This document shows, piece after piece, positions 7,851-53,111 of a DNA stretch of 64,000 nt. The number at the start of each line of letters is the position of its first letter. Positions within the stretch are counted from its first letter, which is position 1. The notes under the pieces were generated by a model, which saw only the letters and a program-made list of their open reading frames with translations, did not search any database and was not told where the DNA came from. The stretch spans positions 960,001-1,024,000 of the forward strand of contig OZ219785.1 in the NCBI GenBank assembly GCA_964291285.2, read 5' to 3'. Source of the stretch: Alphaproteobacteria bacterium (lineage in GTDB: Bacteria > Pseudomonadota > Alphaproteobacteria > Bin95). The translations under genes and the position numbers were made by a program.

Positions 7851-7853
7851 GGT

Positions 7854-31736: not shown

Positions 31737-32366
31737 CTACTGGCTGGCCCAGACGATGCGGGCGATCCAGTCGAGGTCGCTCCGGGCGAGGACGTAGTCC
31801 TCATGGTCGGGATTGAAGGAGCGCAGCTCGACGCGCCGCGCGCTCAGCCGGCCGAGCCATTTGGCCAGCACCTCGCCCTCGCGGGTGCGCGCCACCACGC
31901 GGTCCCCGCGCCGGAGGCTCGCAGCCGGGGAGACCACCACGATGTCCCCGTCGCGATAGACCGGCTCCATGCTGTCGCCCGCGATCTCCAGCGCATAGGC
32001 GTTGGGGTCGCCCAGGCCCGGGAAGGCGACCTCGTCCCATCCCGCGCCGACCGCGTAGCCGGCATCGTCGAAATAGCCGTGGACGCCCGCCTGGGCATGG
32101 CCGATCACCGGAATGGTGCTCGCCGGCGCCCCCTCGCGCCGCAATTGCTCGCCGAACAGCCCCGAAACGCCGCAGCCGGTCGCTGCCATCGCCTTGGAAA
32201 TGCTCTCCGTACTGGGCCAGCGCGGCCGCCCGCCCCTGGTGGTCCGCTTGCTGCGGTTGAAGGTGGTGGCATCCAGCCCCGAGCGTTTGGCGAGTCCGGA
32301 TACCGACAGGCCGTGACGGTCCGCCAGCGCGTCGATCGCGGCCCAGACTTCGGAATGGGTCAGCAT
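31737..32366 (-). CDS. HTH + S24 peptidase (CI/LexA-like) repressor, divergent from the phage-like cluster
   Basis: N-terminal GL..SGLA..SGLD.TTFN.SKR...RWPSTES; A-G cleavage-type site (AQAG); GDSMEP catalytic Ser and downstream Lys (LAK). Confidence 0.88.
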   Translation of the reverse strand: MLTHSEVWAAIDALADRHGLSVSGLAKRSGLDATTFNRSKRTTRGGRPRWPSTESISKAMAATGCGVSGLFGEQLRREGAPASTIPVIGHAQAGVHGYFDDAGYAVGAGWDEVAFPGLGDPNAYALEIAGDSMEPVYRDGDIVVVSPAASLRRGDRVVARTREGEVLAKWLGRLSARRVELRSFNPDHEDYVLARSDLDWIARIVWASQ

Positions 32367-32392
32367 GGAATTCATCATAGGCACAAATCCGC

Positions 32393-32421
32393 TTGACATG
32401 CACTAGGAATTTGACCACATA
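32393..32421 (+). promoter_or_regulatory. Putative sigma70 promoter of the cluster's first gene
   Basis: TTGACA at 32393-32398; -10 element is weak. Confidence 0.45.
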
Positions 32422-32431
32422 CGGAAAATCG

Positions 32432-32446
32432 GAACATTCAAAGAAC
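32432..32446 (+). promoter_or_regulatory. Alphaproteobacterial LexA (SOS) box
   Basis: GAAC-attcaaa-GAAC, an exact GAAC-N7-GAAC, 13 bp upstream of ATG 32460. Confidence 0.7.
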
Positions 32447-32459
32447 CAAGGGGGGATTC

Positions 32460-32828
32460 ATGCCTGTTCCCGATTTTTCGCGGAGCACCCGCGACGAAAG
32501 ACCGTTCAGGAACGCCGAAGAGGCGTGGTTCTGGTTCATGTCCTGGCGCCTCGTGGTCGAGGATGGCGGCGTGCCGGGCCTTGAAGGCCGGGGCCGGCCC
32601 TGCACACCGCTCGACATGCTGGCCTGCCTGCGCCGGTTGGTAAAGCCCGGTGTGCTCACCCGGCGGCACCTGCAGGTGCTGACCGGGTTCGGCCGCCGCC
32701 TCGAAGCCCCGGCGCACGGGCCGCTGGCCCGGCTCTGGGAGGAGGGCATGGCGCGGCTGGAGGACCTGTTGCGCGCCAAGGGGATCGTTGCCGGCAGAGG
32801 CCCGGGACGCCCGGGGATCGCGGCATGA
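32460..32828 (+). CDS. Hypothetical protein, first gene of the phage-like cluster (candidate activator/antiterminator)
   Basis: Good RBS; helical basic protein PF..AEEAWFWF...RPC.P.D...LW.E...L.....KGIV; function is inference only. Confidence 0.65.
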   Translation: MPVPDFSRSTRDERPFRNAEEAWFWFMSWRLVVEDGGVPGLEGRGRPCTPLDMLACLRRLVKPGVLTRRHLQVLTGFGRRLEAPAHGPLARLWEEGMARLEDLLRAKGIVAGRGPGRPGIAA

Positions 32829-33217
32829 CGGGCGGTTCCGGGGATGGAGGCGGTTTCGGCGGACCGGCGCTTGCGGTGTTTTCCGGCAAGGCTGACCTCG
32901 GCTGGCTCCGGCTGCTCCGGCCGGGATTCCGCCACTGCTTCGTCGCGCTGGAGGAAGCCGGCCGCTGGATCACGGTCGATCCGCTGGCCGGCTATACCGA
33001 CGTCGCGGTGCAGCCCGTGCCGGCGGCTTTCGACCTTGCCGGGTTCTACCGCGAGCGGGGCTTCACCGTGGTCGAGACACGGCGACGGCGGCGCTTCCGG
33101 CCCGCGCCGCTCCTGCCCGCCACCTGCGTCGAAGTGGCCAAGCGGGTGCTCGGCATCGCCTCCTGGCGGGTGCTCACGCCGGGCCAGTTACACGATTTTC
33201 TCCTAAAATATGGGTAA
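32825..33217 (+). CDS. Hypothetical protein, possible permuted papain-like peptidase
   Basis: ATGA overlap; His (GFRHCF) precedes Cys (TCVE). Confidence 0.6.
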   Translation: MTGGSGDGGGFGGPALAVFSGKADLGWLRLLRPGFRHCFVALEEAGRWITVDPLAGYTDVAVQPVPAAFDLAGFYRERGFTVVETRRRRRFRPAPLLPATCVEVAKRVLGIASWRVLTPGQLHDFLLKYG

Positions 33218-33233
33218 TGTTTCTCTTATATAC

Positions 33234-33261
33234 TTGACAAATGAAAAACATGGGGTAGTAT
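33234..33261 (+). promoter_or_regulatory. Putative sigma70 promoter for the structural operon
   Basis: TTGACA-16 nt-TAGTAT within an AT-rich patch. Confidence 0.6.
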
Positions 33262-33286
33262 GCAGGTGAACATGAGGGAAACACAC

Positions 33287-34819
33287 ATGATTGCCGAAAC
33301 ACCGGATCCGGAAGCGCTGCTGGCGGGATACCGCCGCGGCGAGGCCCGGCGGCGTCCCTGGGAGGCGCTCTGGCGCGACTGCGCGACCCATGCCCTGCCT
33401 TACGGCGCGGACGGGGCGGTCAATGGCGATGGCGGCGCCGCCAGGCGCATCTATGACGCAACGGCCGCCGATGCCGCGGAGCAGCTTGCCGCCAGCCTGC
33501 TCGCCGAACTCACCCCGCCCTTCGAGCGCTGGGTCGGCTTCGAGCCGGGGATCGGGGCCGGTCCCGAGGCCGCCGATGCACTGGAAGCCGCCGCCGGCAC
33601 CGTGCAGGGCCATCTCGACCGCTCCGCCTTCGCAGTCGAGATGCACCAGGCGCTGCTGGACCTCGTGGTGCTCGGCACGGGCTGCCTGCTGTTCGAGGAG
33701 AGCGCGGTCGGCGCGGCCTCGGCCTTCCGGTTCACCGCCGTGCCGCTCCGCGAGGCGGTGCTGGAAGAGGGGCCGGAAGGGCGGCTCGACCGGGTGTGGC
33801 GTCGGCGCGAGTTCGGCCCCGCCGCGCTCCGCGCCCGCTTTCCCCGCGCGCCCGTCCCGAGCGGCGAGGGGCCCTTCGGCGTCGTCGAGCGCGTCGCGCC
33901 GGAGCCCAGCGGCGGCGCCGACGCCGCCAATTCGACGAATCGCCGCGTTCCGCGCGGCGGCGGCGCTGACGCCGCCAATTCGACGAATCGCCGCGTTCCG
34001 CGCGGCGGCGGCTACCGTTACCTCGCCGTGCTGGAAGGCGGCGGCGGGCAGGCGGCGCAGTTGCTGGCCGAGGGCCGCTTCGCGGTCTCGCCCTTCATCT
34101 GCTTCCGCTGGCTGAAGGCGCCGGGCGAGGTCTATGGGCGCTCGCCGGTGATGAAGGCGCTGCCCGACATCAAGACCGCCGACAAGGTGGTGGAGCTCGT
34201 CCTGAAAAACGCCTCGATCGCCGCGACCGGCATCTGGCAGGCGGACGATGACGGCGTGCTCGACCCGACGGCGGTGGAGCTGGTGCCGGGCGCGGTCATG
34301 CCGAAGGCGGTGGGCTCGGCGGGGCTGACGCCGCTCGCCGCGCCGGGGCGCTTCGACGTGTCGCAGATCGTGCTGGAGGACCTACGCAAGCGCATCCGCC
34401 ACGCGCTGCTCGCCGACCGGCTGGCCGAGCCCGCGAGCCCGGCCATGACCGCGACCGAGGTGCTGGAGCGCGCGGCGGAGACGGCGAGGCTGCTGGGCGC
34501 AACCTACGGGCGGCTGGAGGCCGAACTGCTGACGCCGCTCATCGGGCGCGCGCTCGCCATACTCGCCCGGCGCGGCGAGGTGCCGGCCTTTGCGCTGGAC
34601 GGGCGGGACGCGGGGCTCCGGCTGCGCTCGCCGCTGGCGCAGGCGGCCGGGCGGCGCGAAGCCGGGGCGGCGCTCACCTGGCTCGGCGCGGTGGCGGGGC
34701 TCGGGCCCGAGGCGCTGGCCGCCGTCGATACCGGCCGCGCCGCGCGCTGGCTCGGCGCCCGCCTCGGCGTGCCGCCCGCCCTGCTGGAGCCGCCGGACCT
34801 GCTGCCCGGCGCGGCCTGA
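33287..34819 (+). CDS. Podovirus-type portal (head-to-tail connecting) protein
   Basis: IYDATA, DLVVLGTG, RW....GEVYGRSP...ALPDIK, MTATEV.ER motifs of T7 gp8-like portals. Confidence 0.88.
   Translation: MIAETPDPEALLAGYRRGEARRRPWEALWRDCATHALPYGADGAVNGDGGAARRIYDATAADAAEQLAASLLAELTPPFERWVGFEPGIGAGPEAADALEAAAGTVQGHLDRSAFAVEMHQALLDLVVLGTGCLLFEESAVGAASAFRFTAVPLREAVLEEGPEGRLDRVWRRREFGPAALRARFPRAPVPSGEGPFGVVERVAPEPSGGADAANSTNRRVPRGGGADAANSTNRRVPRGGGYRYLAVLEGGGGQAAQLLAEGRFAVSPFICFRWLKAPGEVYGRSPVMKALPDIKTADKVVELVLKNASIAATGIWQADDDGVLDPTAVELVPGAVMPKAVGSAGLTPLAAPGRFDVSQIVLEDLRKRIRHALLADRLAEPASPAMTATEVLERAAETARLLGATYGRLEAELLTPLIGRALAILARRGEVPAFALDGRDAGLRLRSPLAQAAGRREAGAALTWLGAVAGLGPEALAAVDTGRAARWLGARLGVPPALLEPPDLLPGAA
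33911..34012 (+). repeat. In-frame 48-bp tandem repeat (2 copies) inside the portal gene
   Basis: Encodes (GGADAANSTNRRVPRG)x2; shares tcgccgcgttccgcgcggcggcggc with the repeat at 45744-45904. Confidence 0.9.
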
Positions 34820-34847
34820 CGAGGCGAACCGCACCGCAGTTTTCAGG

Positions 34848-34881
34848 CGGGCGGCTCCTCCGGGGGCCGCCCGTTTTCTTT
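34848..34881 (+). terminator. Intrinsic terminator between portal and scaffold genes
   Basis: GC hairpin cgggcggctcc/gggggccgcccg followed by ttttcttt. Confidence 0.7.
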
Positions 34882-34917
34882 CGACCCCTGACGACAATCC
34901 AAAGGAGACACGACCCC

Positions 34918-35598
34918 GTGGAAACGGACATCGAAACCGAAATGGAGACGCCGGTTCGCCCGGACGGCCTGCCGGACGAGTTCTGGGACGCCGACGCCGG
35001 CCAGGTGCGCCTCGGCGAGCTGGTCGGCGCTTACGGGGCCCTGGCCTCGGCAGAACGCCCGCCCGCGAGCCCGGAGGACTACCGGCTCGAGCTGGACGGG
35101 CTGATCGGCGGGCCTGACGCCGAGGCCAACCGGCGGATGCACGAGGCCGGCTTCACCAACGCCCAGGTCCAGCTCGTCTACGACATGGCGTCCTCGCTGC
35201 TGCTGCCGCTGGCGGGCGAGGTCGCGGGCGAACTGGAGCGGGCCGAGCGCGAGGCCCGGCTCGCGGACCGCTATGGCGGCGAGGACGGCTGGCGGCGCGC
35301 GAAAGGCCAGATGGAGGCCTGGGCGGCGGCCAACCTGCCGGCAGGCGTCGGCGCGGCGCTCACCGGCTCGGTCGAGGGCGCGGCGGCGCTGGAGCGGCTG
35401 ATGGATGCGGGCGAGCCCGGCCTCGGCGGCAGCGGCGGCGAACGGCCGGGCGGGGCGGTGACGCTCGACGGCCTGCGCCGCCTCCAGGGCGACCCGCGCT
35501 ACTGGCGCGACCGCGACCCCGCCCTCGTCCGGCAGGTGATGGAGGGCTACCGGCGCCTCTATCCGGGCGAAACCGAAACCGATCCCGGCGAGTCCTGA
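34918..35598 (+). CDS. Capsid assembly/scaffolding protein
   Basis: Position between portal and capsid; acidic; RPDGLPDEFWD and DPRYWRDRDP ends; AAGGAG RBS. Confidence 0.72.
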   Translation: METDIETEMETPVRPDGLPDEFWDADAGQVRLGELVGAYGALASAERPPASPEDYRLELDGLIGGPDAEANRRMHEAGFTNAQVQLVYDMASSLLLPLAGEVAGELERAEREARLADRYGGEDGWRRAKGQMEAWAAANLPAGVGAALTGSVEGAAALERLMDAGEPGLGGSGGERPGGAVTLDGLRRLQGDPRYWRDRDPALVRQVMEGYRRLYPGETETDPGES

Positions 35599-35624
35599 CG
35601 CGGGCTCGACACACCAACCCTGAA

Positions 35625-37320
35625 CCTAAATCCGGCAGTTGACGAGCTTGATCGCTGTCTCGGGGTAGTGTGAACGGTCGGATTTGGGCGTGGATTTCAG
35701 CACGTGGTCGCGGCCCTGGGTGGCGGCAGCCAGGGTTGACGCCCCGGTTCGCGGCCATGGAGGTATTTCCTGAGCGCCTCGGCGAGGATGCGGCGCCAGC
35801 GATCCCCGGCGCTCAACTGCTCCGCAGTTTGCGTCAGCGACCGGAAGAAGCCGGCGATCCGGCGCAGCGCCGCCATCACCGTCTTGCGACGCCCGTGATG
35901 GGAGGTCACCGTCAGCCGGGTCTGGCCGGCGTGGTGGGTCTGGCGGGCAACCCCGTGCAGGAGCAGCGGCCGGCTGGTGATCGCCTCGCGGTGATGGTCG
36001 GGGTCGGCGAGGCGCACGAACAGGCTCCACCAGTTGTAGATGAGCGCGATCAGCCGGGCCATGTGCCGGCAGCGCGTCAGGTCGCGCGTGGTGAAGCCGC
36101 CCCAACCCCACTGGTTCTTCAACTCGTCGAAGCCGTTCTCCGCGTCCGCCCGGTCGCGGTAGAGCTGGGCCAGCGAGCGTATCTCCAGGTCCAGCGAGGT
36201 CGCCAGCACCGCGAACTCCCACACCCCGGTGCCGGGCTGCGCCTCGGTCCAGAACAGCTCGCCCTGGGCCTTGTCGCCACGCGTCAGCGCCAGCGTCGCA
36301 GGAAGCCGCCGACGCAGCACCACAACCCGGCGCGTCCGGCTCCAGCCCTGCAGACGCAGATCGGCCCCGATCCCCGACCAGCCCTGGCCTGCATCCTCCC
36401 AGCCGTCCCGCACCATCAGCCGCTCGGCAAGCCGGCGCGCCCCCTTCGTCAGGCGCAGCTTGAACAAATAGTCCAGACCCGCAGCCTCGCACGACGCCAT
36501 GTTGGCCTCGCTGCCCCAGTCCTTATCGCCCCGCACCAGACGCGGCCAGCGATCCCGACCGAGACGGTCGAGCAACGCCCACAAGGACGGCGCCGCGCGC
36601 CTCGAATGGTGATGGTTGCCCGGCGCCACCTCGACATCCAGAACAAGCCGCGTGCCCGCCATCAGGAACGCATGGCAGGCATGCGAGGGGCGGCCCGGCT
36701 TCTTCGGGTTGTAGCTCACAACCGCCCCCTCCTGACGACCGTAAAGCGCCTTGATCGTCGTGTCGCAGTCCAGAACCCACGGCTCCCTCAGCAGCGGACG
36801 GACCACCTCGTCCAGATGGCCCTGAAGCCACGATGTGCCGACATCCGCACCGATCCGCTCCAGACCGCGCCGCACCGAATCCTCGCTCGCAACCTTGTCC
36901 ATACCCAGCAGCGCAGGGTTCACCCCGTCGCCGCGCAGCGACGTGATGTGCGCATAGCGAGACTGCCCCGCCAGAACCGACAGAAGAACCGTCCCCAGGA
37001 CATCCCGCTTCGACGGCGCGTTCGGGCTCGTGTAGTGCAGCGGGCAGTCCGCAACCAAAGCGTCAAAGCGACCGCTTACCTTCAGGTATTCCGAGAAAAA
37101 CGCCAGATGCCCCAGCGGCGTCACCGCCGCATCAGGGTCCCATTCCACATGAACCGCGCCGCCGAAGGTGTCCACCTTCACCGACGCTCGGGCGACATCC
37201 CGCACAGCGCCAGGATAATCACCCAAAGGGTGAGCCTCTTCGGCCCCTGAAAAGCCGCTCATACCCGCAGACTACAAGGGATTCGGCAAGGCCAAGCCAT
37301 CCTCAACTGCCGGATTTAGG
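35625..37320 (-). mobile_element. IS1380-like insertion sequence (1696 bp)
   Basis: 18-bp perfect TIRs cctaaatccggcagttga (35625-35642 / 37303-37320); 5-bp TSD ctgaa (35620-35624 / 37321-37325). Confidence 0.88.
35697..37262 (-). CDS. DDE transposase (IS1380-like)
   Basis: LDCDTT, VRGD, YRDRADAEN.FDELK (Y-R-E-K signature); true start uncertain. Confidence 0.88.
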   Translation of the reverse strand: MSGFSGAEEAHPLGDYPGAVRDVARASVKVDTFGGAVHVEWDPDAAVTPLGHLAFFSEYLKVSGRFDALVADCPLHYTSPNAPSKRDVLGTVLLSVLAGQSRYAHITSLRGDGVNPALLGMDKVASEDSVRRGLERIGADVGTSWLQGHLDEVVRPLLREPWVLDCDTTIKALYGRQEGAVVSYNPKKPGRPSHACHAFLMAGTRLVLDVEVAPGNHHHSRRAAPSLWALLDRLGRDRWPRLVRGDKDWGSEANMASCEAAGLDYLFKLRLTKGARRLAERLMVRDGWEDAGQGWSGIGADLRLQGWSRTRRVVVLRRRLPATLALTRGDKAQGELFWTEAQPGTGVWEFAVLATSLDLEIRSLAQLYRDRADAENGFDELKNQWGWGGFTTRDLTRCRHMARLIALIYNWWSLFVRLADPDHHREAITSRPLLLHGVARQTHHAGQTRLTVTSHHGRRKTVMAALRRIAGFFRSLTQTAEQLSAGDRWRRILAEALRKYLHGREPGRQPWLPPPRAATTC

Positions 37321-37348
37321 CTGAAACCACGACAGGAGGACAGGCAAC

Positions 37349-38167
37349 ATGCCCGTCGATCTTTCCCCTTCCTTCATCAAGGCGTTCGAAGGCGAAGTCC
37401 ACAACGCCTATCAGCGCCAGGGCTCCAAGCTCCGCGACACGGTGCGCACGCGCCGCGGCGTGATGGGCTCCAGCGTGACCTTCCGCAAGGTCGGGCGCGG
37501 CGCCGCCGCCACCAAGGCCCGGCACGGCCAGATCCCGGTGATGAACGTCGATCACAGCGCGGTCGAGTGCAATCTCCGCGACTACTATGCCGGCGAGTGG
37601 GTGGACCGGCTCGACGACCTCAAGATCGGCGGCGGCGAGCGCGACACGGTCGCCAAGGCGGGCGCCTATGCGCTCGGCCGCAAGACCGACCAGCTCATCG
37701 CCGCCGCGCTCGACGGCTCGACCAACCATGCCGGCGCCGACACGGACGGGCTGACCAAGGCCAAGGTGCTCACCGCCTTCGAGATGCTCGGCCAGGCCGA
37801 CGTGCCGGACGACGGCGAACGCACCGCCGTCATCGGCTGGAAGCAGTGGTCGGACCTCATGAAGATCGAGGAGTTCGCCAATGCCGACTATGTGGGCGCG
37901 GACGACCTGCCCTGGCGGGGCACCCAGGCCAAGCGCTGGCTCGGCACCCTCTGGCTGCCGCATTCGGGGCTGACGCTCAAGGACTCGGTCCGGCTCTGCC
38001 ACTGGTACCACAAGAGCGCGGTCGGCCACGCCGCCGGCGCGGAAGTCACCACCGACATCACCTGGCACGGCGACCGCGCCGCCTGGTTCGTCGCCAACTG
38101 GATGAGCCAGGGCGCGGCGCTGATCGACGCCGAGGGCGTCGTGACCATGCGCTGCCTCGAAACCTGA
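37349..38167 (+). CDS. Major capsid protein
   Basis: F..EVH.AYQRQGSKLR.TVR, ALGRKTD, WLG..W..H pattern of podovirus-like capsids; AGGAGG RBS; gene order. Confidence 0.82.
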   Translation: MPVDLSPSFIKAFEGEVHNAYQRQGSKLRDTVRTRRGVMGSSVTFRKVGRGAAATKARHGQIPVMNVDHSAVECNLRDYYAGEWVDRLDDLKIGGGERDTVAKAGAYALGRKTDQLIAAALDGSTNHAGADTDGLTKAKVLTAFEMLGQADVPDDGERTAVIGWKQWSDLMKIEEFANADYVGADDLPWRGTQAKRWLGTLWLPHSGLTLKDSVRLCHWYHKSAVGHAAGAEVTTDITWHGDRAAWFVANWMSQGAALIDAEGVVTMRCLET

Positions 38168-38195
38168 CCGGAACGAAAAGGAGACAACAGAAGCA

Positions 38196-38555
38196 ATGGC
38201 GTCCAAATCCGCGAACCTCTCCGTCCTGGCCTATGCCAACGGCTTCACCTTCTGGCACTACAAGTCCGCCGAGGACGCCGACGGCGACATGGTGGCGGCC
38301 GGCTATTTCGACGCGGCCGCCGACCTGCTCCGCCCCGGCGACATGCTGGCGCTGAACGGCGCGGGCGACAGCGCGGCGCTGGTCCGCGTGTCGTCCAGCC
38401 GCAATGGCAGCGTCGGCGTCGGCTTCACCACCGACTGGGAGACCCAGGCGGCGGTCGCCGACGCGGCCGGCGGGGCGACCGTCGATGCCCAGGCGCGCGC
38501 GGCCGTCAACGCGGTCATCCGCGCGCTCGAACGGGTCGGCGTCCTCGCCGCCTGA
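38196..38555 (+). CDS. Putative head decoration/fibre protein
   Basis: Follows capsid; LSVLAYANGFT.WHY..GYF; C-terminal AVAD.AGGATVD.QAR.A.N.....L...G resembles head-fibre tails. Confidence 0.55.
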   Translation: MASKSANLSVLAYANGFTFWHYKSAEDADGDMVAAGYFDAAADLLRPGDMLALNGAGDSAALVRVSSSRNGSVGVGFTTDWETQAAVADAAGGATVDAQARAAVNAVIRALERVGVLAA

Positions 38556-38561
38556 CGGACC

Positions 38562-38594
38562 GGCGGCCGGTGGACGGCATGTCCGCCGGCCGCC
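38562..38594 (+). other. 14-bp stem hairpin after the head genes (attenuator or mRNA stabiliser)
   Basis: ggcggccggtggac-ggcat-gtccgccggccgcc; no U tract. Confidence 0.4.
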
Positions 38595-38633
38595 ACCCGC
38601 CATTCCCCTTCCCCTGCCGAAAGGAGGCCGCCC

Positions 38634-39194
38634 ATGGCGTTGACCGCCGTCCAGATTGCGAGCCAGGCGCTCGTCCGGCTCGGTGCGCTGCCGATTTCCG
38701 ATTTCGCGGAGCCGACCCTCGAGGCGCGCACCGCCGCCGCGCTCTATCCCACGCTCCGCGATACGCTGCTTGCGGGCCATGCCTGGCGTTTCGCCACGGC
38801 CGAGGCGGCGCTTTCACCTGCGGAAGAGCCGCCGCTCGACGGCTTCGCGCATGCCTTCCGGCTGCCGGCCGGTTTCCTGAATGCGCTGGCGGTGGAGGAC
38901 GGGCGCGAGACCGGCTGGCGCATCGCCGGCGGAAGGCTTCACGCGCACACGGCCCGGCTCCGGCTCGCCTATATCTTCCGCGCCGGCGAGGCGGAGTTCC
39001 CGCCCTGGTTCGCGGATGCGCTCGCCGCCCATCTCGCCGCCGCCTTCTGCCTGCCGGTGACGGAGAACACGTCCCGCGCGGAGGCGCTCCAGCGGCTGGC
39101 GGACGCAGCCCTCCGCCGCGCCCGGCGCACGGACGCGCTCCAGGACCCGGCGCGCGCGCCGCTCCGCTTCCCGCTGATCGAGGCCAGGGCATGA
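38634..39194 (+). CDS. Tail tubular protein A (T7 gp11-like adaptor)
   Basis: I...AL..LGA.PI..F, RD.LL..H.W.FA, F.LP..FL motifs. Confidence 0.78.
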   Translation: MALTAVQIASQALVRLGALPISDFAEPTLEARTAAALYPTLRDTLLAGHAWRFATAEAALSPAEEPPLDGFAHAFRLPAGFLNALAVEDGRETGWRIAGGRLHAHTARLRLAYIFRAGEAEFPPWFADALAAHLAAAFCLPVTENTSRAEALQRLADAALRRARRTDALQDPARAPLRFPLIEARA

Positions 39195-41068
39195 CCCGGA
39201 TCAACACCCTCAAGACCAATTTCAGCGCGGGCGAGCTCACCCCGCGCCTCGCCGGCCGGCCCGACCTCGCGGCCTATCGCGACGGCGCGCGCCGGCTGCG
39301 CAATGTCACCGTCCACCCGACGGGCGGGCTGTCGCGGCGGCCGGGGCTCGCCTTCGTCGAGGCCGCGCCCGGCCCCGGCCGGCTGGCCGCCTTCGAATTC
39401 AACACGGAGGAAAGCTACCTGCTGCTGTTCACCGACCGGGCGCTGCGCATCTACCGGGCGGGCCGGCGGGTCGCGCTCGTCGCCGCGCCCTGGCGGGAAG
39501 CGGACCTGGCCGGGCTCAACTGGACGCAGACCGCCGACACGCTGCTGGTCGTCCATCCCGACTATCCGCCGCAGACCCTGACGCGCCGGGGGCAGGACGA
39601 CTGGCGGATCGCGCCCTGGGAATGGGCCGAGCGGGCCGGACGGTCGATGCGGCCCTACCACCGCTATGCCGCGCCGTCGGTGACGCTGGCGGCCTCGGCG
39701 GCTTCGGGCCGCGTCCGGCTCACCGCCTCGGCCGGCGTCTTCGCGCCGGAGCATGCGGGCCAGCCCTTCCGGATCGGCAGGGACGAGGTCCGGATCCACC
39801 GGTTCGTCTCCGCCACCCAGGCCGAGGCGGACGTCACGGGCGCGCTTGCAGGCGGCACGGCGGCGACCGCGAACTGGCGGGAGCCCGCCTTTTCGGCCCG
39901 GCGCGGCTGGCCGGTCTCGGTCGTGTTCCACCAGGACAGGCTGGTGATCGGCGGGTCGCGCTCGCTGCCGGACCGGCTCTGGCTCTCGCGCTCGGGCGCC
40001 TTTTTCGACTTCGACCCCGGCGAGGGGCTCGATGACGAGGCCATCGCCTTCCCGCTGCTTTCGGACCAGGCGAACGCGGTGCGCGCGGTCGTCTCCGGGC
40101 GGCATCTGCAGGTCTTCACCTCGGGCGCGGAATGGACCGTCTCCGGCGACCCGCTGACCCCCGCCTCTATCCAGCTCCGCCGCCAGACGCGCATCGGCTC
40201 GCCCGCCGACCGCGCCGTCCGGCCGGTGGATGTCGAGGGAGCGGTGATGTTCCTCGCCCGCAACGGGCGCGAGCTGCGCGAATTCCTGTTCGCGGACGCC
40301 GAGCTTGCCTACCGCGCGCAGGACCTGGCGCTGCTTGCCGGCCACCTGTTCGCCGCGCCGGTCGAGGCCGTCTGGGACGAGGCGGCCCGGCGGCTGCTGG
40401 TCGTCATGGGCGACGGGTCCATCGCCGCGCTCACGCTCTGGCGGGCCGAGGGCGTCCATGCCTGGACGCGGCTGGAGACCGAGGGAGCCTTCCGGTCGGC
40501 GGCGGTGGCGGGCGGCGCGGCCTGGGCGCTGGTCGAGCGCGAGGGGCGGTATTCGGTCGAGCGCTTCGACGAGGCGATCGGCGTGGACGCCGCGGTCTCC
40601 GGAACGGCCGCCCGCCCGACCCGCTCCTGGGGCGGCCTCGCCCATCTCGAAGGCCGGGAGGTCGCCGCCGTCGCGGGCGGCAGGCCGCTCTCCGGGCTCC
40701 GGGTGACGGGCGGACGCATCCTGCTCGACGCCCCGGCCCGGAACGTGCAGGCGGGGCTGCCCTTCGCGCACGAGATCGAGCCGCTCGCCCCCGGCGTCCA
40801 GCTTGCGCGGGGCGCGATGCAGGGCGTGGCCCACCGGGCGGTGCGGCTGGTGCTGCGCCTTGCCGGCGCGCGGGCGCTGCGCTGCGACACGGGCTTCGGC
40901 TTCCGCCGGGCCGCGCTCGGCGCGGATGCCTTCACCGGCGACATCTCGCTCGGCGCGGGCGGCTGGCGGCGCGACGGCGCGGCCCCGCTCTGGCGCATCG
41001 AGGACGAGACCCCGCTTCCCTTCCACCTCCTTTCCGCTGCAACCGAACTCAAGGTGACCGACATATGA
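39191..41068 (+). CDS. Tail tubular protein B (T7 gp12-like nozzle)
   Basis: TNFSAGEL.P.L.GR.DL, GG..RRPG, WTQ.AD, GWP..V.F.Q.RL; 625 aa. Confidence 0.82.
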   Translation: MTRINTLKTNFSAGELTPRLAGRPDLAAYRDGARRLRNVTVHPTGGLSRRPGLAFVEAAPGPGRLAAFEFNTEESYLLLFTDRALRIYRAGRRVALVAAPWREADLAGLNWTQTADTLLVVHPDYPPQTLTRRGQDDWRIAPWEWAERAGRSMRPYHRYAAPSVTLAASAASGRVRLTASAGVFAPEHAGQPFRIGRDEVRIHRFVSATQAEADVTGALAGGTAATANWREPAFSARRGWPVSVVFHQDRLVIGGSRSLPDRLWLSRSGAFFDFDPGEGLDDEAIAFPLLSDQANAVRAVVSGRHLQVFTSGAEWTVSGDPLTPASIQLRRQTRIGSPADRAVRPVDVEGAVMFLARNGRELREFLFADAELAYRAQDLALLAGHLFAAPVEAVWDEAARRLLVVMGDGSIAALTLWRAEGVHAWTRLETEGAFRSAAVAGGAAWALVEREGRYSVERFDEAIGVDAAVSGTAARPTRSWGGLAHLEGREVAAVAGGRPLSGLRVTGGRILLDAPARNVQAGLPFAHEIEPLAPGVQLARGAMQGVAHRAVRLVLRLAGARALRCDTGFGFRRAALGADAFTGDISLGAGGWRRDGAAPLWRIEDETPLPFHLLSAATELKVTDI

Positions 41069-41481
41069 GCGCACTCCTCCCCGTAGCCCTGGCGGCGGGC
41101 AACGCCCTGCTCGCCGAAACCTCCGCCGCCGAGGCGGCCTCCCGGCGCCGCGCCGCCGCGAACGCGCAGGCCGCCGATGTCCGCGCCGGCGCCGCCGAGC
41201 GCGAACGCCTGCGCCGCCGCCGGCTGAAGCAGGCGCTGGCCCGCGCCCGCGCCCGGTTCGGCGCGGCCGGCACCGGCTCCGCCGCCGGTTCGGCCGCCGC
41301 GCTGCTGGGCGGGCTTGCCGCCGAAAGCGAGCGGGAGGGCCGCCATGCGGGCGACGCCGCCTCGCGGCGCCTCGCCTCGCTCCGGGCCGACAGCACCCAT
41401 GCGGGCCGGCTCGAACGGCTGGGCCTCCTCAGCCGGACGGGCGGGCTGCTCGCGCTGCGCGGGCCGCGGCGAAACGGCTGA
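41065..41481 (+). CDS. Putative internal virion/ejection protein (gp14-like)
   Basis: Ala/Arg-rich helical; RARFGAAG...GS motif; ATGA overlap; position after tail tube genes. Confidence 0.5.
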   Translation: MSALLPVALAAGNALLAETSAAEAASRRRAAANAQAADVRAGAAERERLRRRRLKQALARARARFGAAGTGSAAGSAAALLGGLAAESEREGRHAGDAASRRLASLRADSTHAGRLERLGLLSRTGGLLALRGPRRNG

Positions 41482-41492
41482 CGGGCGGTCCC

Positions 41493-41672
41493 GTGGACAC
41501 GCTCGCGCTCCGGGTCTTCGCCGAATACGGGCCGCTCGCCCTTGGCTGGGGCCTTGCCGGCTGGCTGCTGCACCGGGATTCGCGCGGCCGCCAGCAGGTG
41601 CTCGACGTCATCGTCGCCAACACGCGCGCGCTCGCCGTGCTGGCGGAGAAGATCGACGCGCTCCGGCGGTAG
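41493..41672 (+). CDS. Small single-TM + coiled-coil protein (holin-like), absent from the ORF track
   Basis: GTG..TAG, 59 aa: MDTLALRVFAEYGPLALGWGLAGWLLHRD...NTRALAVLAEKIDALRR. Confidence 0.55.
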   Translation: MDTLALRVFAEYGPLALGWGLAGWLLHRDSRGRQQVLDVIVANTRALAVLAEKIDALRR

Positions 41673-41731
41673 CGGGCGCCCGGCCACCGACCGCTGCCAC
41701 TATCCACTACCCACTATTCAAAGGAGGTTCG

Positions 41732-43198
41732 ATGAACCCCACCTTCACCTCTTTCCTCGACGCCTGGAACCGCAGCCAGACTCTGGCAACGCCCGCGCTT
41801 CACCGGAACATCGCCGGCTGGTTCGACGAGCGGATCGCCAAGGGCACGCGGCGCATGCTGCTGCTGGCCTTCCGGGGCTCGGGCAAATCGACCCTGCTCG
41901 GCCTGCTGTCCGCCTGGCTGCTCAAATGCAACCCGGACCGGCGCATCCTGGTGCTGGCGGCGGAGTCGGCGCTGGCATCCAAGACGGTGCGCACCGTGCG
42001 CCGCATCCTGGAGCGCCATCCCGACACGGAAGCGCTCCGCCCCGACAAGCCCGAGGAATGGGCGGCCGACCGGCTGACCGTGCCGCGCCGCCTCGTCTCG
42101 CGCGACCCCTCGCTGCTGGCGCGCGGCATCGGGGCCAACATTACCGGGGCGCATGCCGATGTCGTGATCTGCGACGATGTCGAAGTGCCGAACACCTGCG
42201 GCACGCCGGCGAAGCGGGCCGACCTGCGCGCGCGCCTCTCCGAGGCCGACTATGTGCTGAGCCCCGGCGGCTTCCAGATCTACAGCGGCACGCCGCACAG
42301 CTACTACTCGATCTACACCAAGGACCCGCGGCCGGAGGAAGGCGACAAGCGCCCGTTCCTGCACGATTTCCGCCGGTTGACGAAGAAACTCACGGCGAGA
42401 GCTTGGCCGGAGCGCTTCCCGCCGAAGGTCATCAAGGAAATCCGCAAGCGCGCGGGCCCGGCGCGCTTCGCCAGCCAGATGCTGCTCGAACCCATGCAGG
42501 CGGTGGACGGCCGGCTGAACGCGGAGTGGCTGCGCCGCTACGAGGAGCCGCTCGACTACAGCGAGGTGAACGGCAGGCCGGTGCTGCGGCTGGCCGGCCG
42601 GCGGCTGCTCTCCGCCTCGGCCTGGCTGGACCCCTCCTTCGGCAGGCGGGACAAGGGCGATGCCTGCGTGCTGGCCGCGGTGTTCACCGACGAGGACGGC
42701 CGGCGCCTGCTGCACCGGGTGGCCTACCTCTACTACGACCCGAAGAACGACCGCGACGGCGCGGCGAAGCAGTTGTGCCGGCAGGCGGCCGCCCATGCGC
42801 GCAAGCTGGCGCTGCCGGCCGTCCATGTGGAGTCCAACGGCGTCGGGGCGTTCATCCCGAAAATCCTGCAGCGGGAACTCGCGCGCGAGGGCCACGGCGC
42901 CACGGTCATCGGCATCCCCAACAGCCGCCCGAAGCACGAGCGCATCCTGGAGGCGTTCGACGCGCCGCTCGCCGCCAATGCGCTCTGGGCCCATGCCAGC
43001 GTATTCAAGTCGCCCTTCCTGCGAGAACTGAGGGAATGGCGGCCGGAAAACCGCAGCGGCCCGGACGACGGACTGGACGCGGCCGCCTGCGCGCTGCTGA
43101 TGGAGCCGGTCCGCATCCGCCCGGTCGGCCGCGCGCCGCGCCTGGAGTGGCGGAAGCACGCAAGCCCCGGTCGCGCCCGCACCGATTTCGGCATCTGA
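41732..43198 (+). CDS. Terminase large subunit
   Basis: Walker A AFRGSGKST, Walker B VICDDVE, GTP coupling motif, nuclease LDPSFG / VESNG / DDGLDA; AAGGAGG RBS. Confidence 0.92.
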   Translation: MNPTFTSFLDAWNRSQTLATPALHRNIAGWFDERIAKGTRRMLLLAFRGSGKSTLLGLLSAWLLKCNPDRRILVLAAESALASKTVRTVRRILERHPDTEALRPDKPEEWAADRLTVPRRLVSRDPSLLARGIGANITGAHADVVICDDVEVPNTCGTPAKRADLRARLSEADYVLSPGGFQIYSGTPHSYYSIYTKDPRPEEGDKRPFLHDFRRLTKKLTARAWPERFPPKVIKEIRKRAGPARFASQMLLEPMQAVDGRLNAEWLRRYEEPLDYSEVNGRPVLRLAGRRLLSASAWLDPSFGRRDKGDACVLAAVFTDEDGRRLLHRVAYLYYDPKNDRDGAAKQLCRQAAAHARKLALPAVHVESNGVGAFIPKILQRELAREGHGATVIGIPNSRPKHERILEAFDAPLAANALWAHASVFKSPFLRELREWRPENRSGPDDGLDAAACALLMEPVRIRPVGRAPRLEWRKHASPGRARTDFGI

Positions 43199-43209
43199 GG
43201 CGGGGGCCG

Positions 43210-43280
43210 CCCTTCGATACGCCCGCCGGAGGCGGGCTACTCAGGGTGAGGGAAGAGCCTGCCCTGGGCCTGTCGAAGGG
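43210..43280. repeat. REP-like inverted repeat pair
   Basis: cccttcga...ctcagggtgagg / cctgccctgggcctgtcgaaggg. Confidence 0.55.
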
Positions 43281-43337
43281 GACGGCCTCCATGACAGGCT
43301 CGACCCATCCACCAACCACCATCCACGGGAGGAACCC

Positions 43338-43907
43338 ATGATTCCTGCACTTCTCGCCCAGATCGGCCTGCCGCTCATCGCGCGCCTCGCGGGCGCCGGG
43401 CTGGAGGCGCTCGACAACCCGGCCGCCGACACCGCCGCCAGGGCGCTCCGCGAGGTGGACGGCGTGCTGCGGACCGGCGGCGTCGCCCCGGAGGCGCTCG
43501 ACGCCGCGAACCGGCGCATCGAGGCCGAGGCGCGCTCGCGCGAGGCCGAGACCGCCTGGCGCGAGGTCAACGCCACCATGCGCGCCGAGACCCGCGCCGG
43601 GGACGCCTATGTGCGCCGCTGGCGGCCGACCTTCGGCTATGCCGTGACGGCGGCGTGGGCCATGCAGATGGGCGCCATCGCCTGGGCGGTGGTGGCGCAC
43701 CCGACCGACGCGCCGGCGATCCTGGCGGCGGCCGCCTCGCTCAGCGCCATGTGGGGCGTGGCGCTCGCCGTGCTCGGGGTCGCGGTGCATGAACGCTCGC
43801 GCGACAAGGCGCTCGCCGCAGGCCAGCCCGCCTCCGGCCTGGCGTCGCTGGCCGCCGCGCTGCTGGACCGCAGGAAGGCGGAACGGCCCGCCGCGCCCGC
43901 CGGGTAG
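43338..43907 (+). CDS. 3TM-type holin (GTA holin family-like)
   Basis: N.TMRAE....D.YVRRWRPTFGY followed by two TM helices and LGV....RS.DK. Confidence 0.75.
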   Translation: MIPALLAQIGLPLIARLAGAGLEALDNPAADTAARALREVDGVLRTGGVAPEALDAANRRIEAEARSREAETAWREVNATMRAETRAGDAYVRRWRPTFGYAVTAAWAMQMGAIAWAVVAHPTDAPAILAAAASLSAMWGVALAVLGVAVHERSRDKALAAGQPASGLASLAAALLDRRKAERPAAPAG

Positions 43908-49569: not shown

Positions 49570-49642
49570 CCGGCTGTCCCCTCTCCTTCGCTTCGGGCAC
49601 AAAGCTAACACGCCCGACGGGGCCAGCAACCGGCAACGGCCG

Positions 49643-50713
49643 TCACATGCCCGCGGACTGCAATCGCTCGAGGGCGATGCCCAACACGCGGTCGTCGAAT
49701 ATCCGGCGCTTGCGCCGCCCCCATTCGGGTCCGGCCGGCCATGCCTCGACGCCGCCGGCGATGGCGGCAACCTCCGGTGCGCAGCCTTCCCGTGTCAGGA
49801 GCCAATCGACCGTTGCCAGCAATTCCAAGCCGAAAGGCGACTGGAAGCCGTCGATCAGGTCTTCCACCTTCTCGACGACGGCGCCGTAACCGTCTGCATC
49901 GGATGTCTTGAGAAATGCCTCAACCCGGTCGCTGCGGTCGTAACGGCACCGTACGACATCGAAGGGCTTCGCGTCGGGGATGCGGATGTCCGCGTGGAGA
50001 TAGCTGCCGTCCAGCCCGTCGAGCAGATGGGTCAGCCGGTGCGAATAGGGGCCATAGCGCTCGGCTTCGAACCGCAACTCCAGCCGGTCCGGCAATCCCA
50101 GCTTCGCCGCGACCCGCTCCGCGAACCAGGCGAGCTTGTGCATTTCAAGCAATGTGCATTCGAAGCCCAGCACCTCGTACCGGCGCAGCAGGCCGGCCAT
50201 CGCGGCTCGCGCCGGGGTGAGCGTTTCGACACCGGCGCGCTTGCTCACATTGCGGTATTCGTCCGTCGGCTCGAAGACAATGACCCGGACGCCCTCAAGC
50301 CCGCCAAGATGCTGGTCGATGCGCGGCCGCACCTCGTTCCAGTCCAGGCCGCCATTGCCGGCCCCGAGCGGCGGCAATGCAACGGAACGGATGCCTTCCC
50401 CCCGCACCAGCGCCGCCAATTCTGAAAGGCCGCTCTCGATCCACTCCATGCGCGATTTGCCGCGCCAGTGGTCCTTGGTCGCGAAGTTCACGATCAGCCG
50501 GGGGCCGACCAGATCGTTTGTGCGATGAACGAACAGGCCGCCGGGCCGGAGGTCGCCGGCCTTGCACGCAGCCCGGTACGAGCGGTAGTTCTCCGGGAAT
50601 GCCTCGCGGAACATGAGCGCGACGCCCTTGCCCATCACACCGACGCAATTGACGGTGTTGACCAACGCCTCCGCTTCGGCGTCGAGGAGATTCCCCGTCC
50701 CGGTTTCGATCAC
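49643..50713 (-). CDS. darG: DarG antitoxin (macrodomain ADP-ribosylglycohydrolase + DarG C-terminal domain)
   Basis: LVNTVNCVGVMGKG, NFATK.HW, PPLGAGNGGL, YGPY, GLELLATV; coupled to the darT stop. Confidence 0.9.
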   Translation of the reverse strand: MIETGTGNLLDAEAEALVNTVNCVGVMGKGVALMFREAFPENYRSYRAACKAGDLRPGGLFVHRTNDLVGPRLIVNFATKDHWRGKSRMEWIESGLSELAALVRGEGIRSVALPPLGAGNGGLDWNEVRPRIDQHLGGLEGVRVIVFEPTDEYRNVSKRAGVETLTPARAAMAGLLRRYEVLGFECTLLEMHKLAWFAERVAAKLGLPDRLELRFEAERYGPYSHRLTHLLDGLDGSYLHADIRIPDAKPFDVVRCRYDRSDRVEAFLKTSDADGYGAVVEKVEDLIDGFQSPFGLELLATVDWLLTREGCAPEVAAIAGGVEAWPAGPEWGRRKRRIFDDRVLGIALERLQSAGM

Positions 50714-51225
50714 CGGAAATACCATTTCGGTCGCTCCGCTACTAGAAGTATAACACCTGCGTCCTCAATGAGCAATTCGATTTTTCGTGCATCTGAGGCC
50801 GTTTTTGTCGCTAACCCAAGCAGAGCGTTCGTAGGCACATGCATGTGAACTAGCGCCTCCGCCTGATAGCGCCCGATCTTATCTGGATCATTTCGATCAC
50901 GCTTAAAGTCTCTTCGTCGCAGTAGCTCCCAGTCGATCAAGTCGAGACCCGACTGAGGTGTGGAGAATTTCGCTGCCCCCAAATACGCATGAGAGTCAGT
51001 CACGAGGCATCGGGCACCAGCTTCCTCCAGACGGGCGATCGATGTGACAACAAATACGATTTCACCGGGTTTTCTCTGCTGCGCGCCGACTCGGCCAGAA
51101 AGGATATTTAGCTGCATCGGTGAATAGGGAGTGAAATAAAACGGCACATAGTCATTCAGAGTGCCGCCAGGTGGAGTGGGGACCAATCGTCGTTCGCGTT
51201 TTCCAATGAGATCTGGATTTCCGAT
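50710..51225 (-). pseudogene. darT: DarT toxin (DNA ADP-ribosyltransferase), 3' part; gene interrupted by IS1595 transposon
   Basis: IGNPDLI.KR, L.DYVPFYF...SPM, RYQAEALV (catalytic Glu), WYF. Confidence 0.88.
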
Positions 51226-51290
51226 GGGAACTATATACTTGACGATCCTAAATGAGCGGGGTATGATGGTCTCAATCGAAGGAGATCGTC

Positions 51291-52202
51291 ATGGACAGCC
51301 TCATTCAGTTCACGCAGCGGTTCGCAACGGTTGAAGCCTGCTTGGACCACCTTCGGGCGGTGCGGTGGGCCGATGGGGCTTATTGCCCGCACTGCGGCGG
51401 CGCGGATCGCATCTACCACTACAGCGACGGCCTCCGGCACAAGTGCGGCGAGTGCCGGCGCACTTTCCGCCTGATCACCGGCACCATCTTCGCGGACAGC
51501 CCGATCAAGCTGCTGCCGAAGTGGTTTGCGGCAATCTGGCTCGATACATGCCATGCGAAGGGCATTTCGAGCGTCCAGCTTGCGAAGGATATAGGGGTCA
51601 CTCAGAAGACGGCTTGGCATATGCTTCACCGTATCCGCCATGCGGCCGGCAACGATACGACCGGGATGCTGGGCGGGACCGTTGAAGTCGATGAGACCTA
51701 CATCGGCGGCAAAGAGAAGAACAAGCACAAGAGCAAGCGGACCGAGGGAACGCGGGGTCGCAGCACCAAGACGAAATCGGTGGCATTCGGCATTGCCGAG
51801 CGCGGCGGCGAAACAAGGGCCTTCGCGGTGGAAGGCGCGGCGACTCGCCATATCATGCCCCATGTGCTCCGCAATGTGGCGCTCGGATCGACGGTCAACG
51901 CGGACGAACACCGGCCCTATTCGTCGCTCGACAGCTACTACGCGCTGGAGCGCGTCAATCATGGTCGCGGCGAGTATGTGCGCGGGAAAGCCCATACGAA
52001 CACCGTGGAAGGCTTCTGGGCGCTGGTGAAGCGGGCCTATGTCGGCATTCACCACCATTGGAGCCGGAAGCACTCGCAACGCTACCTCGACGGATGCACC
52101 TATCGCCTGAATTGCCGGAAGATGGGCCGGGCGGACAGAGTGACGCGCTTGCTCGGCCGCGGGATCGGAGTCAGGCTCCCCTACAAGGTGCTGACACAAT
52201 GA
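51291..52202 (+). CDS. IS1595 family transposase
   Basis: Zn ribbon CPHC..CGEC, HTH, VEVDETYIGG, ADE, HTNTVEGFW. Confidence 0.93.
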   Translation: MDSLIQFTQRFATVEACLDHLRAVRWADGAYCPHCGGADRIYHYSDGLRHKCGECRRTFRLITGTIFADSPIKLLPKWFAAIWLDTCHAKGISSVQLAKDIGVTQKTAWHMLHRIRHAAGNDTTGMLGGTVEVDETYIGGKEKNKHKSKRTEGTRGRSTKTKSVAFGIAERGGETRAFAVEGAATRHIMPHVLRNVALGSTVNADEHRPYSSLDSYYALERVNHGRGEYVRGKAHTNTVEGFWALVKRAYVGIHHHWSRKHSQRYLDGCTYRLNCRKMGRADRVTRLLGRGIGVRLPYKVLTQ

Positions 52203-53076: not shown

Positions 53077-53111
53077 AGGCGCACGGGCAAACAGGCGCGG
53101 GCGCACGCTAG

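Follow-up and report, generated by a model that had tools for sequence, protein, structure and literature searches.

A conserved T7-like head and short-tail gene cluster in Alphaproteobacteria as a candidate gene transfer agent

The window analysed here, a stretch of 64,000 nucleotides (C1:960001-1024000) of an alphaproteobacterial genome, contains at positions 31737-43907 a cluster of phage-derived genes in which a divergent helix-turn-helix (HTH)-S24 repressor gene, rep, adjoins a co-oriented T7-type head and tail module, with an insertion sequence (IS) in one of the spacers (Table 1). Because the window has a GC content of about 70%, reading frames were picked by third-position GC (GC3), and gene names were taken from Pfam, PHROGs and NCBIfam. 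A co-oriented, T7-like order of late genes had been proposed for this region from the letters alone (the original prediction), and both the GC3 frames and the family searches bear out that order and its coordinates. The gene list given there was incomplete, as it had passed over orfA and orfB, two conserved open reading frames (ORFs) between rep and the portal gene. The label 'decoration' for the ORF after the capsid gene finds no support, and the scaffold and the small holin-like ORF are indeed present but are both named by position only.

Table 1. Features of the T7-like cluster, in positions of the window (aa, amino acids; dN/dS, ratio of nonsynonymous to synonymous divergence within the genus; PDB, Protein Data Bank; AF2, AlphaFold2)
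Feature	Position	Strand	Evidence and remarks
HTH + Peptidase_S24 repressor (rep)	31737-32399	-	PF00717 8.2e-22, phrog_4 2.9e-27; 220-aa ORF
Divergent control region	32393-32459	+	TTGACA 32393-32398; SOS box GAACATTCAAAGAAC 32432-32446; alignment of 11 same-genus loci
orfA, 122 aa, four-helix	32460-32828	+	synteny in most lineages; dN/dS 0.31
orfB, candidate permuted NlpC/P60 (YiiX/TseH-like) cysteine hydrolase	32825-33217	+	dN/dS 0.12; AF2 model
T7-type portal	33260-34819	+	PF12236 6.5e-117
Scaffold, 226 aa	34918-35598	+	by position only; dN/dS 0.19
IS element	35625-37320 (with target duplication 35620-37325)	-	DDE transposase 35697-37262 (-); PF13701, PF01609
Major capsid protein	37349-38167	+	PF19821 1.3e-80, phrog_3437; dN/dS 0.14
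119-aa virion-module ORF	38196-38555	+	phrog_18004 2e-9 (family without assigned function); syntenic; dN/dS 0.25
Tail tubular protein A (adaptor)	38634-39194	+	phrog_394 1.3e-41, phrog_9239; PDB 9efk_T 1e-3
Tail tubular protein B (nozzle)	39191-41068	+	phrog_376 2.3e-131; PDB 8ck1_A 'Tail Nozzle' 4.7e-55
gp14-like internal virion protein	41065-41481	+	phrog_418 2e-5, weak
59-aa ORF, one hydrophobic stretch, just 5' of the terminase gene	41493-41672	+	holin-like by position; dN/dS 0.13
T7-type large terminase (TerL)	41732-43198	+	NCBIfam NF033889 termin_lrg_T7, 356 bits against a cut-off of 150; phrog_38 9.4e-70
Three-transmembrane (3TM) holin	43338-43907	+	PF11351 GTA_holin_3TM 1.8e-11; phrog_3427 holin

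The podovirus (T7-type) ancestry claimed for the structural module is supported by the matches of the portal, capsid, adaptor, nozzle and TerL. The portal resembles solved portals, including the T7 gp8 entries 6r21 and 3j4a (~4e-10), and the capsid protein, which is 91-99% identical within the genus, matches PDB 9eg4_A at 4.7e-27. TerL, the only cluster protein to be named in the NCBIfam search, has a ribosome-binding site (RBS) and the Walker A motif GSGKST. The nozzle scores under the family cut-off against PF25675, and the homologue of the gp14-like protein in a related locus, L020, likewise stays under the cut-off for PF24072 T7_gp14 (5.5e-5). No family match was found for the scaffold in Pfam, PHROGs or NCBIfam, although its position between portal and capsid is kept in all lineages, nor for the 59-aa ORF in PHROGs or Pfam, which is 85-97% identical across the genus. 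The portal gene also carries an in-frame tandem repeat of 2x48 nt (33904-33999); about 96 nt of it are missing from the contigs of relatives (X4, X24), and the insert is therefore specific to the window's lineage.

Once 1,701 bases (the IS and one target duplication) are subtracted, the cluster is ~10.5 kb long, as had been estimated. It is single-copy in the genome and sits between a DAO oxidoreductase and alaS on the left and an HpcH aldolase and a 2-hydroxyacid dehydrogenase on the right. Gaps of 21-45 bp separate it from these metabolic neighbours, and all ten flanking ORFs are metabolic. These flanks are as predicted, whereas the composition, said to be host-like, is somewhat above that of the host (GC 72-73.5% against 68.1% for the genome). 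The predicted lack of an integrase, attachment (att) repeats and replication genes was confirmed in searches of the window and cluster: there is no tyrosine recombinase match in the window (115 lie elsewhere in the genome, the nearest at C1:815519 and C1:1146904), no att-like direct repeat was found flanking the cluster, and the scan of 10 cluster proteins and 10 flanking ORFs returned no family for replication, a polymerase or a recombinase. The T7-type RNA polymerase family PF00940 was not found in the genome, a weak negative as the control genomes were silent too.

The nearest complete phage, Pelagibacter phage EXVC031P (34 kb), reaches a capsid identity of only 45%, which answers in favour of a host-maintained element a check that had been set for it, namely whether its closest relatives are complete phages. 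The 37 relatives in IMG/VR all lie on contigs of 4.1-15.9 kb, and no full-length phage relative was found in three collections. A locus in a metagenome-assembled genome of Ferrovibrio terrae (L049) has the capsid, a divergent portal and tail, and homologues of the 1,247-aa protein and TerL of the pelagiphage; it resembles a genuine prophage from the related group of phages and might serve as an outgroup. For the cluster itself to be an autonomous minimal temperate phage, with replication or integration functions that have escaped recognition, there would be orfA and three small ORFs without assigned function to turn to. However, it spans ~10.5 kb with no polymerase, helicase, primase or recombinase, the search for a T7-type RNA polymerase was negative (with its silent control), it occurs as a single copy at one conserved site, and it has no full-length phage relative in the three collections. 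We give this explanation almost no credence.

Within the genus, a portal match is present in 16/16 congeners (in G001 as a fragment of 46 residues only) and a capsid match in 12/16, the four misses being assemblies of 250-730 contigs. Gene order is identical in all 18 loci fetched, as far as the contigs extend. Nine congener loci continue beyond the holin, and six of them share the window's right flank (HpcH, 2-hydroxyacid dehydrogenase and two luciferase-like genes); the left flank is variable and consists of host genes with orthologues elsewhere in the window's IS-rich genome. As a separate observation, the cluster's left border differs between congeners through rearrangement, and the genome is very rich in mobile elements, with 30 full-length copies of one IS family besides its 115 tyrosine recombinase matches.

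Using pairwise Nei-Gojobori estimates, we obtained dN/dS values of 0.12-0.40 over all 13 cluster genes in the genus, far below the value near 1 that had been put forward as evidence against a maintained element. The median dS of the cluster genes is 0.22-0.48, compared with 0.19-0.33 for alaS, HpcH, the dehydrogenase and the two luciferase-like genes, and cluster dS follows that of alaS (Spearman 0.63-0.90 over 36-45 genome pairs). In ten Roseomonadaceae loci dN/dS is 0.08-0.27 at a dS of 0.38-0.75, against 0.46 for the flanking lysK.

Outside the genus, a scan of a genome collection returned 114 capsid relatives. The best 80 of these, at 56-72% identity, include Tagaea, Roseospirillum, Caenispirillum, Magnetospirillum and allies, Terasakiella and many Geminicoccaceae, as well as Roseomonas, Muricoccus and Humitalea. 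Nearly all relatives have the order rep, orfA, orfB, portal, small ORF, scaffold, capsid, adaptor, nozzle, gp14-like gene and TerL; orfA is absent in the Geminicoccaceae loci. A tree of concatenated portal, capsid, nozzle and TerL from 48 loci matches taxonomy, in that the Roseomonadaceae (10 rows) form one starred clade and the six labelled groups need 5 changes, which is the minimum. In a class survey of 401 evenly sampled alphaproteobacterial genomes from 294 genera, the capsid was found in 69 genomes and 55 genera, at 53-72% identity in 64 of the 69, with one match per positive genome except for G104, which has two. Capsid-positive genomes include some of only 0.9-1.4 Mb, and some of the smallest keep the full syntenic cluster. 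The marker of the Rhodobacter capsulatus gene transfer agent (RcGTA), the GTA_TIM family PF13547, occurs in 34/401 genomes and in none of the 69 with the capsid, a contrast that is confounded by phylogeny.

The cluster also has a conserved chromosomal site. The order lysK-rep-[cluster]-DUF952-pyrD is found in Roseomonadaceae, Algihabitans, Humitalea, a sister genus and Azospirillaceae: lysK stands on the rep side in 13 loci; the gene next after TerL or the lysin is DUF952 or pyrD in Roseomonadaceae, Algihabitans, Humitalea and the sister genus; and DUF952-pyrD adjoins the capsid-to-TerL module in Azospirillum and Niveispirillum. At least one of the lysK and DUF952-pyrD flanks lies within the DNA fetched in 24/108 loci, and in about 10/13 Roseomonadaceae loci the left flank holds an aspartate-semialdehyde dehydrogenase, a class-I lysyl-tRNA synthetase and an MprF-like gene. 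In the window's genome a single contig carries lysK, the cluster and pyrD in this order, though with 135 and 175 kb between them. Full-length rep homologues occur in 105/401 genomes (including the unpublished G070), 48 of them with a capsid match as well and 30 with the two within 20 kb; put the other way, rep is present in 48/69 capsid-positive genomes, 18/34 with the RcGTA marker and 39/298 others. Genomes with rep but no cluster carry it as a solo gene between lysK and DUF952-pyrD, divergent from the latter and directly next to it, for example in Parvibaculaceae and Xanthobacter (L279-L286, L205, L219, L249). Since there is one site, in a syntenic block common to several orders, the comparison points to one of two histories for the structural genes: a single ancient acquisition, with later losses that left the solo rep, or one insertion next to a resident rep.

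The Azospirillaceae carry the cluster in two pieces. In 11 named loci rep, orfA, orfB, portal, small ORF and scaffold stand alone. The capsid-to-TerL module lies ~317 kb away on the same contig in Azospirillum sp. TSH64 (L267, L276), and in A. oryzae and Niveispirillum irakense it is apart from the first module in the stretches fetched (L264/L277 and L227/L278). The break is exactly at the scaffold-capsid junction, and every gene in the split loci (three capsid-to-TerL modules and 11 repressor-side loci) is a full-length match. A cluster that is split and yet kept could not support a phage lifestyle, while host-controlled genes that act in trans could still work. This arrangement also bears on whether the cluster is a helper-dependent satellite or capsid-forming island that borrows replication, fibres and spread from a phage. 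Such an element would account for a locus that encodes a head, packaging enzyme and repressor but no replication genes and, in the genus, no fibre, and the virus callers of IMG/VR do flag regions of this kind. It is nevertheless very unlikely, because the split is conserved, there is no integrase, primase or att repeat, the chromosomal site is fixed across families, the tree follows taxonomy, dS equals that of the host, and the cluster has its own adaptor and nozzle.

The start of rep is probably Met8 (32378), giving a protein of 213 aa, because relatives align only from residue 9-12. The serine of a GDSM motif, the lysine and an Ala-Gly site are present in rep, and the only S24 proteins of the genome are LexA and rep itself. 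Among 63 cluster-linked rep homologues, many of which are open frames of 213-214 aa, the serine is kept in 37 and the lysine in 31, and both are lost in a Geminicoccaceae locus (L082) and an Algihabitans locus (L050). The control region is an AT-rich stretch of 81 bp, conserved across the genus, with a TTGACA hexamer and, 13 bp 5' of the orfA ATG, a GAAC-N7-GAAC direct repeat, which is the LexA box of Alphaproteobacteria. The host lexA has this motif upstream as well, and there are only 111 exact sites in the 6.1-Mb genome; the only other one in the window, noted here in passing, is at 7231. An exact GAAC-N7-GAAC or GTTC-N7-GTTC box was found in the control region of 22/64 loci, where 0.72 would be expected: 13/14 Roseomonadaceae, 5/9 congeners and four others. 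The host-type SOS box in the promoter region suggests that the cluster is under SOS-type control, and the divergent repressor is not the sole regulatory feature as had been thought. Contigs from an RNA library (X24) of a 90-95% identical relative span portal, capsid, adaptor and nozzle and are sparse over the TerL region; as DNA carry-over is possible, this cover gives a weak hint of transcription and no proof of it.

Between the control region and the portal lie orfA and orfB. The AF2 model of orfA has a predicted local distance difference test (pLDDT) score of 79, and no match was found by PDB sequence profile or by Foldseek on this model, while a protein atlas gave unnamed clusters only; orfA is a candidate regulator or small terminase. 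For orfB (AF2 model, pLDDT 84) residues H37, C38 and C101 are invariant in 15 sequences. A PDB sequence profile, a Pfam search with 15 members and Foldseek at E <= 0.001 all gave no match. The VIA structure search places TseH (6v98, Z 7.4), YiiX (2if6, Z 6.6) and a cysteine peptidase (3kw0, Z 5.9) at the top, followed by the next match at Z 4.7. As only this wide search gave a coherent top three, all of them at Z < 8, we regard orfB as a moderate candidate for a lysis or wall-piercing enzyme of the permuted NlpC/P60 type.

In most lineages outside the window's genus a fibre and a lysin are present, the fibre combining an N-terminus like that of T7 gp17 with a body of SGNH/GDSL or pectate-lyase-like type and the lysin being a Hydrolase_2 protein. 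In Geminicoccaceae a tailspike-like gene is found on the far side of rep and not between nozzle and TerL; its product has 843 aa with a pectate-lyase-like domain (L082 3053-5584, minus strand, and also L098 and L101). In the window's genus the interval between nozzle and TerL is only 0.65 kb and holds the gp14-like gene and the 59-aa ORF, and comparison of the loci indicates that the tail fibre has been lost there. It had been suggested that fibre and endolysin are encoded elsewhere or lost; sister lineages have a fibre and a Hydrolase_2 lysin, and tblastn at E <= 1e-5 found no homologue of these anywhere in the window's genome. Large ORFs to the left of rep in congeners, considered as a possible fibre or lysin, proved to be ordinary host genes with orthologues elsewhere in the window's genome. 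Proteins like gp15 and gp16 are absent from the cluster, where there is no room for them, though divergent homologues could escape a sequence search; homologues of the 783-aa and 1,247-aa pelagiphage proteins were found in no locus except the prophage-like Ferrovibrio locus.

We propose that the cluster is very probably a domesticated remnant of a T7-like podovirus that is maintained by the host. Host maintenance had already been suggested, and it now draws on the single copy, synteny, purifying selection, a dS equal to that of host genes, a tree that follows taxonomy and the conserved site. We further consider it probable, if with considerable reserve, that in lineages with an intact copy the cluster makes DNA-filled particles that act like a gene transfer agent (GTA). 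Three features looked for in a GTA are found here, namely particle genes of phage origin in the chromosome, no means of replication, integration or excision, and vertical co-evolution under purifying selection; with regard to replication it should be said that the ORFs of the cluster include some small ones without assigned function.

A mechanism compatible with these features would run as follows. In an undamaged cell the rightward operon would be kept off by the host LexA at the GAAC-N7-GAAC box, by the adjacent HTH-S24 repressor, or by both, and on DNA damage activated RecA (RecA*) would remove LexA and the HTH-S24 repressor. A subpopulation of cells would then build proheads from portal, scaffold and capsid, which the T7-type TerL would fill with the DNA available; because there is neither a replication module nor excision, this would be chromosomal DNA. 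The adaptor, nozzle and gp14-like protein would close the particle, the holins, probably together with the orfB cysteine hydrolase, would lyse the cell, and the particles would hand their DNA to kin in the manner of a GTA. Particle formation, the packaging and transfer of host DNA, and the binding of the regulators are steps that we infer.

Several observations weigh against a functioning GTA. No small terminase was recognised, and neither the fibres and Hydrolase_2 lysin of sister lineages (tblastn, E <= 1e-5) nor the 783-aa and 1,247-aa pelagiphage proteins, which leaves no large ejection proteins, have a homologue anywhere in the genome; with no fibre homologue, attachment to a recipient is left unexplained. 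The closest solved capsid entry lists 7 chains and, if this denotes a T=7 shell of phage size, the capacity may exceed the ~10.5-kb cluster, unlike in classical GTAs. TerL is the least constrained gene (dN/dS 0.40), and within the genus one type of it shows 87-91% identity to the window's TerL and another 65-78%. These types are discordant with the other genes: rep, adaptor and nozzle have their closest relative in G007, whose TerL is only 73% identical. This pattern suggests recombination at TerL. Moreover, kin are not independent, so that both the dS correlations and the exclusivity with RcGTA overstate the support, and the sister genus g3 has no capsid match in 10/10 genomes.

To these must be added recent damage. 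Between the scaffold and capsid genes of the window, the IS is inserted 23 bp upstream of the capsid ATG, just before the capsid RBS, and is flanked by a 5-bp target duplication, CTGAA (35620-35624 and 37321-37325). All coding frames of this copy are intact; since the IS cuts the capsid and every downstream gene from the upstream promoter, the window's copy of the cluster may be silenced. There are 29 further full-length copies of this IS family in the genome, at 97.2-100% identity and 5 of them identical, and the IS is absent from all relatives' loci examined. Contigs of run X3, which has the same organism label as X1, join 35619 to 37321 with 5 letters shared and 0-1 letter differences, and a 95%-identical relative in X4 has the same IS-less join. 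The insertion is thus recent and still polymorphic, and the IS-less allele circulates. In the congeners, TerL of G016 is interrupted by an IS-like insertion, internal deletions are present in G006, which is the closest relative, G008 (L026, L027) has a portal split by a ~29-kb insertion with ~40 codons present on both sides and an adaptor and nozzle fused by deletion, and G014 has a single stop codon in the portal.

Taken with the lack of a capsid match in g3, these insertions, deletions and the stop codon are what might be expected of a cryptic prophage remnant in neutral decay, conserved only through shortness of time. Yet all genes are open and, in two independent clades with a dS of 0.2-0.75, under purifying selection, the capsid has kept 53-72% identity in 64/69 matching genomes of the class sample, and the insertion site is syntenic across families, and we therefore think neutral decay scarcely plausible. 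A role other than transfer is unlikely too, but less so. The domesticated genes could serve altruistic lysis with release of DNA, triggered by the SOS response, or make a killing particle against competitors, or interfere with related phages, and selection on the capsid, tail and lysis genes would then be for that role. The persistence of purifying selection in the genus after loss of the fibre, together with the lack of recognisable ejection proteins, is a poor fit with DNA delivery, the low constraint on TerL points the same way, and SOS control would suit lysis triggered by damage. On the other hand, the portal and the T7-type terminase are kept intact across hundreds of genomes at dN/dS values well below 1, from which we argue that DNA packaging matters, most lineages have kept a fibre or tailspike, and we know of no short-tailed killing particle.

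The T7-like cluster can be compared with several known systems. Like RcGTA and the Caulobacter crescentus GTA (CcGTA), it is a chromosomal, phage-derived set of head, tail and terminase genes that lacks genes for replication and integration, is inherited vertically under purifying selection, exceeds the genome mean in GC, includes a PF11351 holin and shows host-level regulation; in the Azospirillaceae it also has a multi-locus layout such as those GTAs can have. It differs in having a T7-type portal, TerL, adaptor and nozzle where RcGTA has an HK97-type siphovirus module, a prohead protease and a long tail, and in having an adjacent repressor of the cleavable type and an SOS box instead of GafA/GafYZ. 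As had been claimed, the two are distinct: there is no GTA_TIM protein in the cluster, no match to this family in the window's genome, and co-occurrence was zero in the 401 genomes. The endosymbiont GTAs of George et al. 2022 are RcGTA-like and so are not the same element.

Compared with T7-like podoviruses, and with the PF19821 group of pelagiphages and vibriophages, the cluster has the same order of portal, scaffold, capsid, adaptor, nozzle and gp14-like gene, and its TerL matches the T7 terminase equivalog of NCBIfam, whereas the TerL of pelagiphage EXVC031P is of another type. What sets it apart from these phages is the lack of RNA and DNA polymerases, of early and middle genes and of gp15- or gp16-like proteins, together with its fixed, non-mobile place in the chromosome. 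It is also distinct from phage satellites such as phage-inducible chromosomal islands (PICI) and capsid-forming PICI, as it has no integrase, no primase or replication initiator, no att sites and no mobility.

A further parallel is FpGTA of Faecalibacterium, a ~10.5-kb operon conserved across that genus for which podovirus-like GTA particles are proposed and packaged host DNA of 8.4-8.9 kb was seen experimentally, and which is presented as first among GTA-like elements in having a podovirus-like morphology (PMC12946183). FpGTA belongs to Firmicutes and has experimental packaging, whereas the T7-like cluster is alphaproteobacterial and known from genes; the comparison is one of descriptions only. 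A parallel had also been drawn with RogA, the repressor of the Caulobacter GTA activators, which is described as a protein of ~213 aa that begins with an HTH and ends in an S24-like domain without the catalytic residues, and as having homologues widespread in Alphaproteobacteria, including Rhodospirillales (PMC9632790). By that description rep is alike in architecture and length, but it keeps the Ser/Lys dyad, and the parallel stands as an analogy only. All 80 fetched relatives of a Parvibaculaceae rep member keep the dyad as well, including Caulobacteraceae and Phenylobacterium records, and homology of rep to RogA was therefore not established.

Only a few independent domestications are known to have produced GTAs. 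Finding new GTAs is described in a 2024 review as an open problem, as they resemble defective prophages (PMC11841831). A full-text literature search, with supplements and subscription journals outside its scope, found neither a T7-like GTA nor the present conserved cluster described. If our reading is correct, a T7-like, short-tailed GTA family would be present in about one sixth of evenly sampled Alphaproteobacteria, in lineages without the RcGTA type, and among its carriers would be cultured and tractable genera such as Roseomonas, Azospirillum, Magnetospirillum and Skermanella. It would become possible to test how frequently phages are turned into transfer devices, whether the two families are alternatives in function and how a podovirus particle lacking ejection proteins delivers DNA, and the conserved insertion site with its solo repressors would offer a rare dated record of the domestication and loss of a prophage.

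More speculatively, and as a possibility on which we would not rely, the cluster could be an ancient, class-wide second family of alphaproteobacterial GTAs, acquired once between rep and DUF952-pyrD before the major orders split, vertically inherited since, complementary to RcGTA, and leaving an orphan rep at emptied sites. In that event it would be a candidate source of the mitomycin-C-induced particles of A. lipoferum 4B and Azospirillum sp. B510, which are described as containing ~10-kb random host DNA, with the genes behind them unsettled in that account (PMC3899980). Azospirillum species, among them A. oryzae and Azospirillum sp. TSH64, do carry the split cluster. The Azospirillum particles of Boyer et al. 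2008 are said to be siphovirus-like in morphology, which would count against this link.

Two other regions of the window stand out. Positions 7300-9100 form a low-GC islet (54-57%) with a 396-aa PIN_12-domain protein and a 131-aa ORF without family matches. Positions 49600-55000, also of lower GC (60-65%), hold a Macro-domain protein, a 348-aa ORF without matches, a D12-class N6-adenine DNA methyltransferase and a DDE transposase, and may be a defence or restriction-modification islet.

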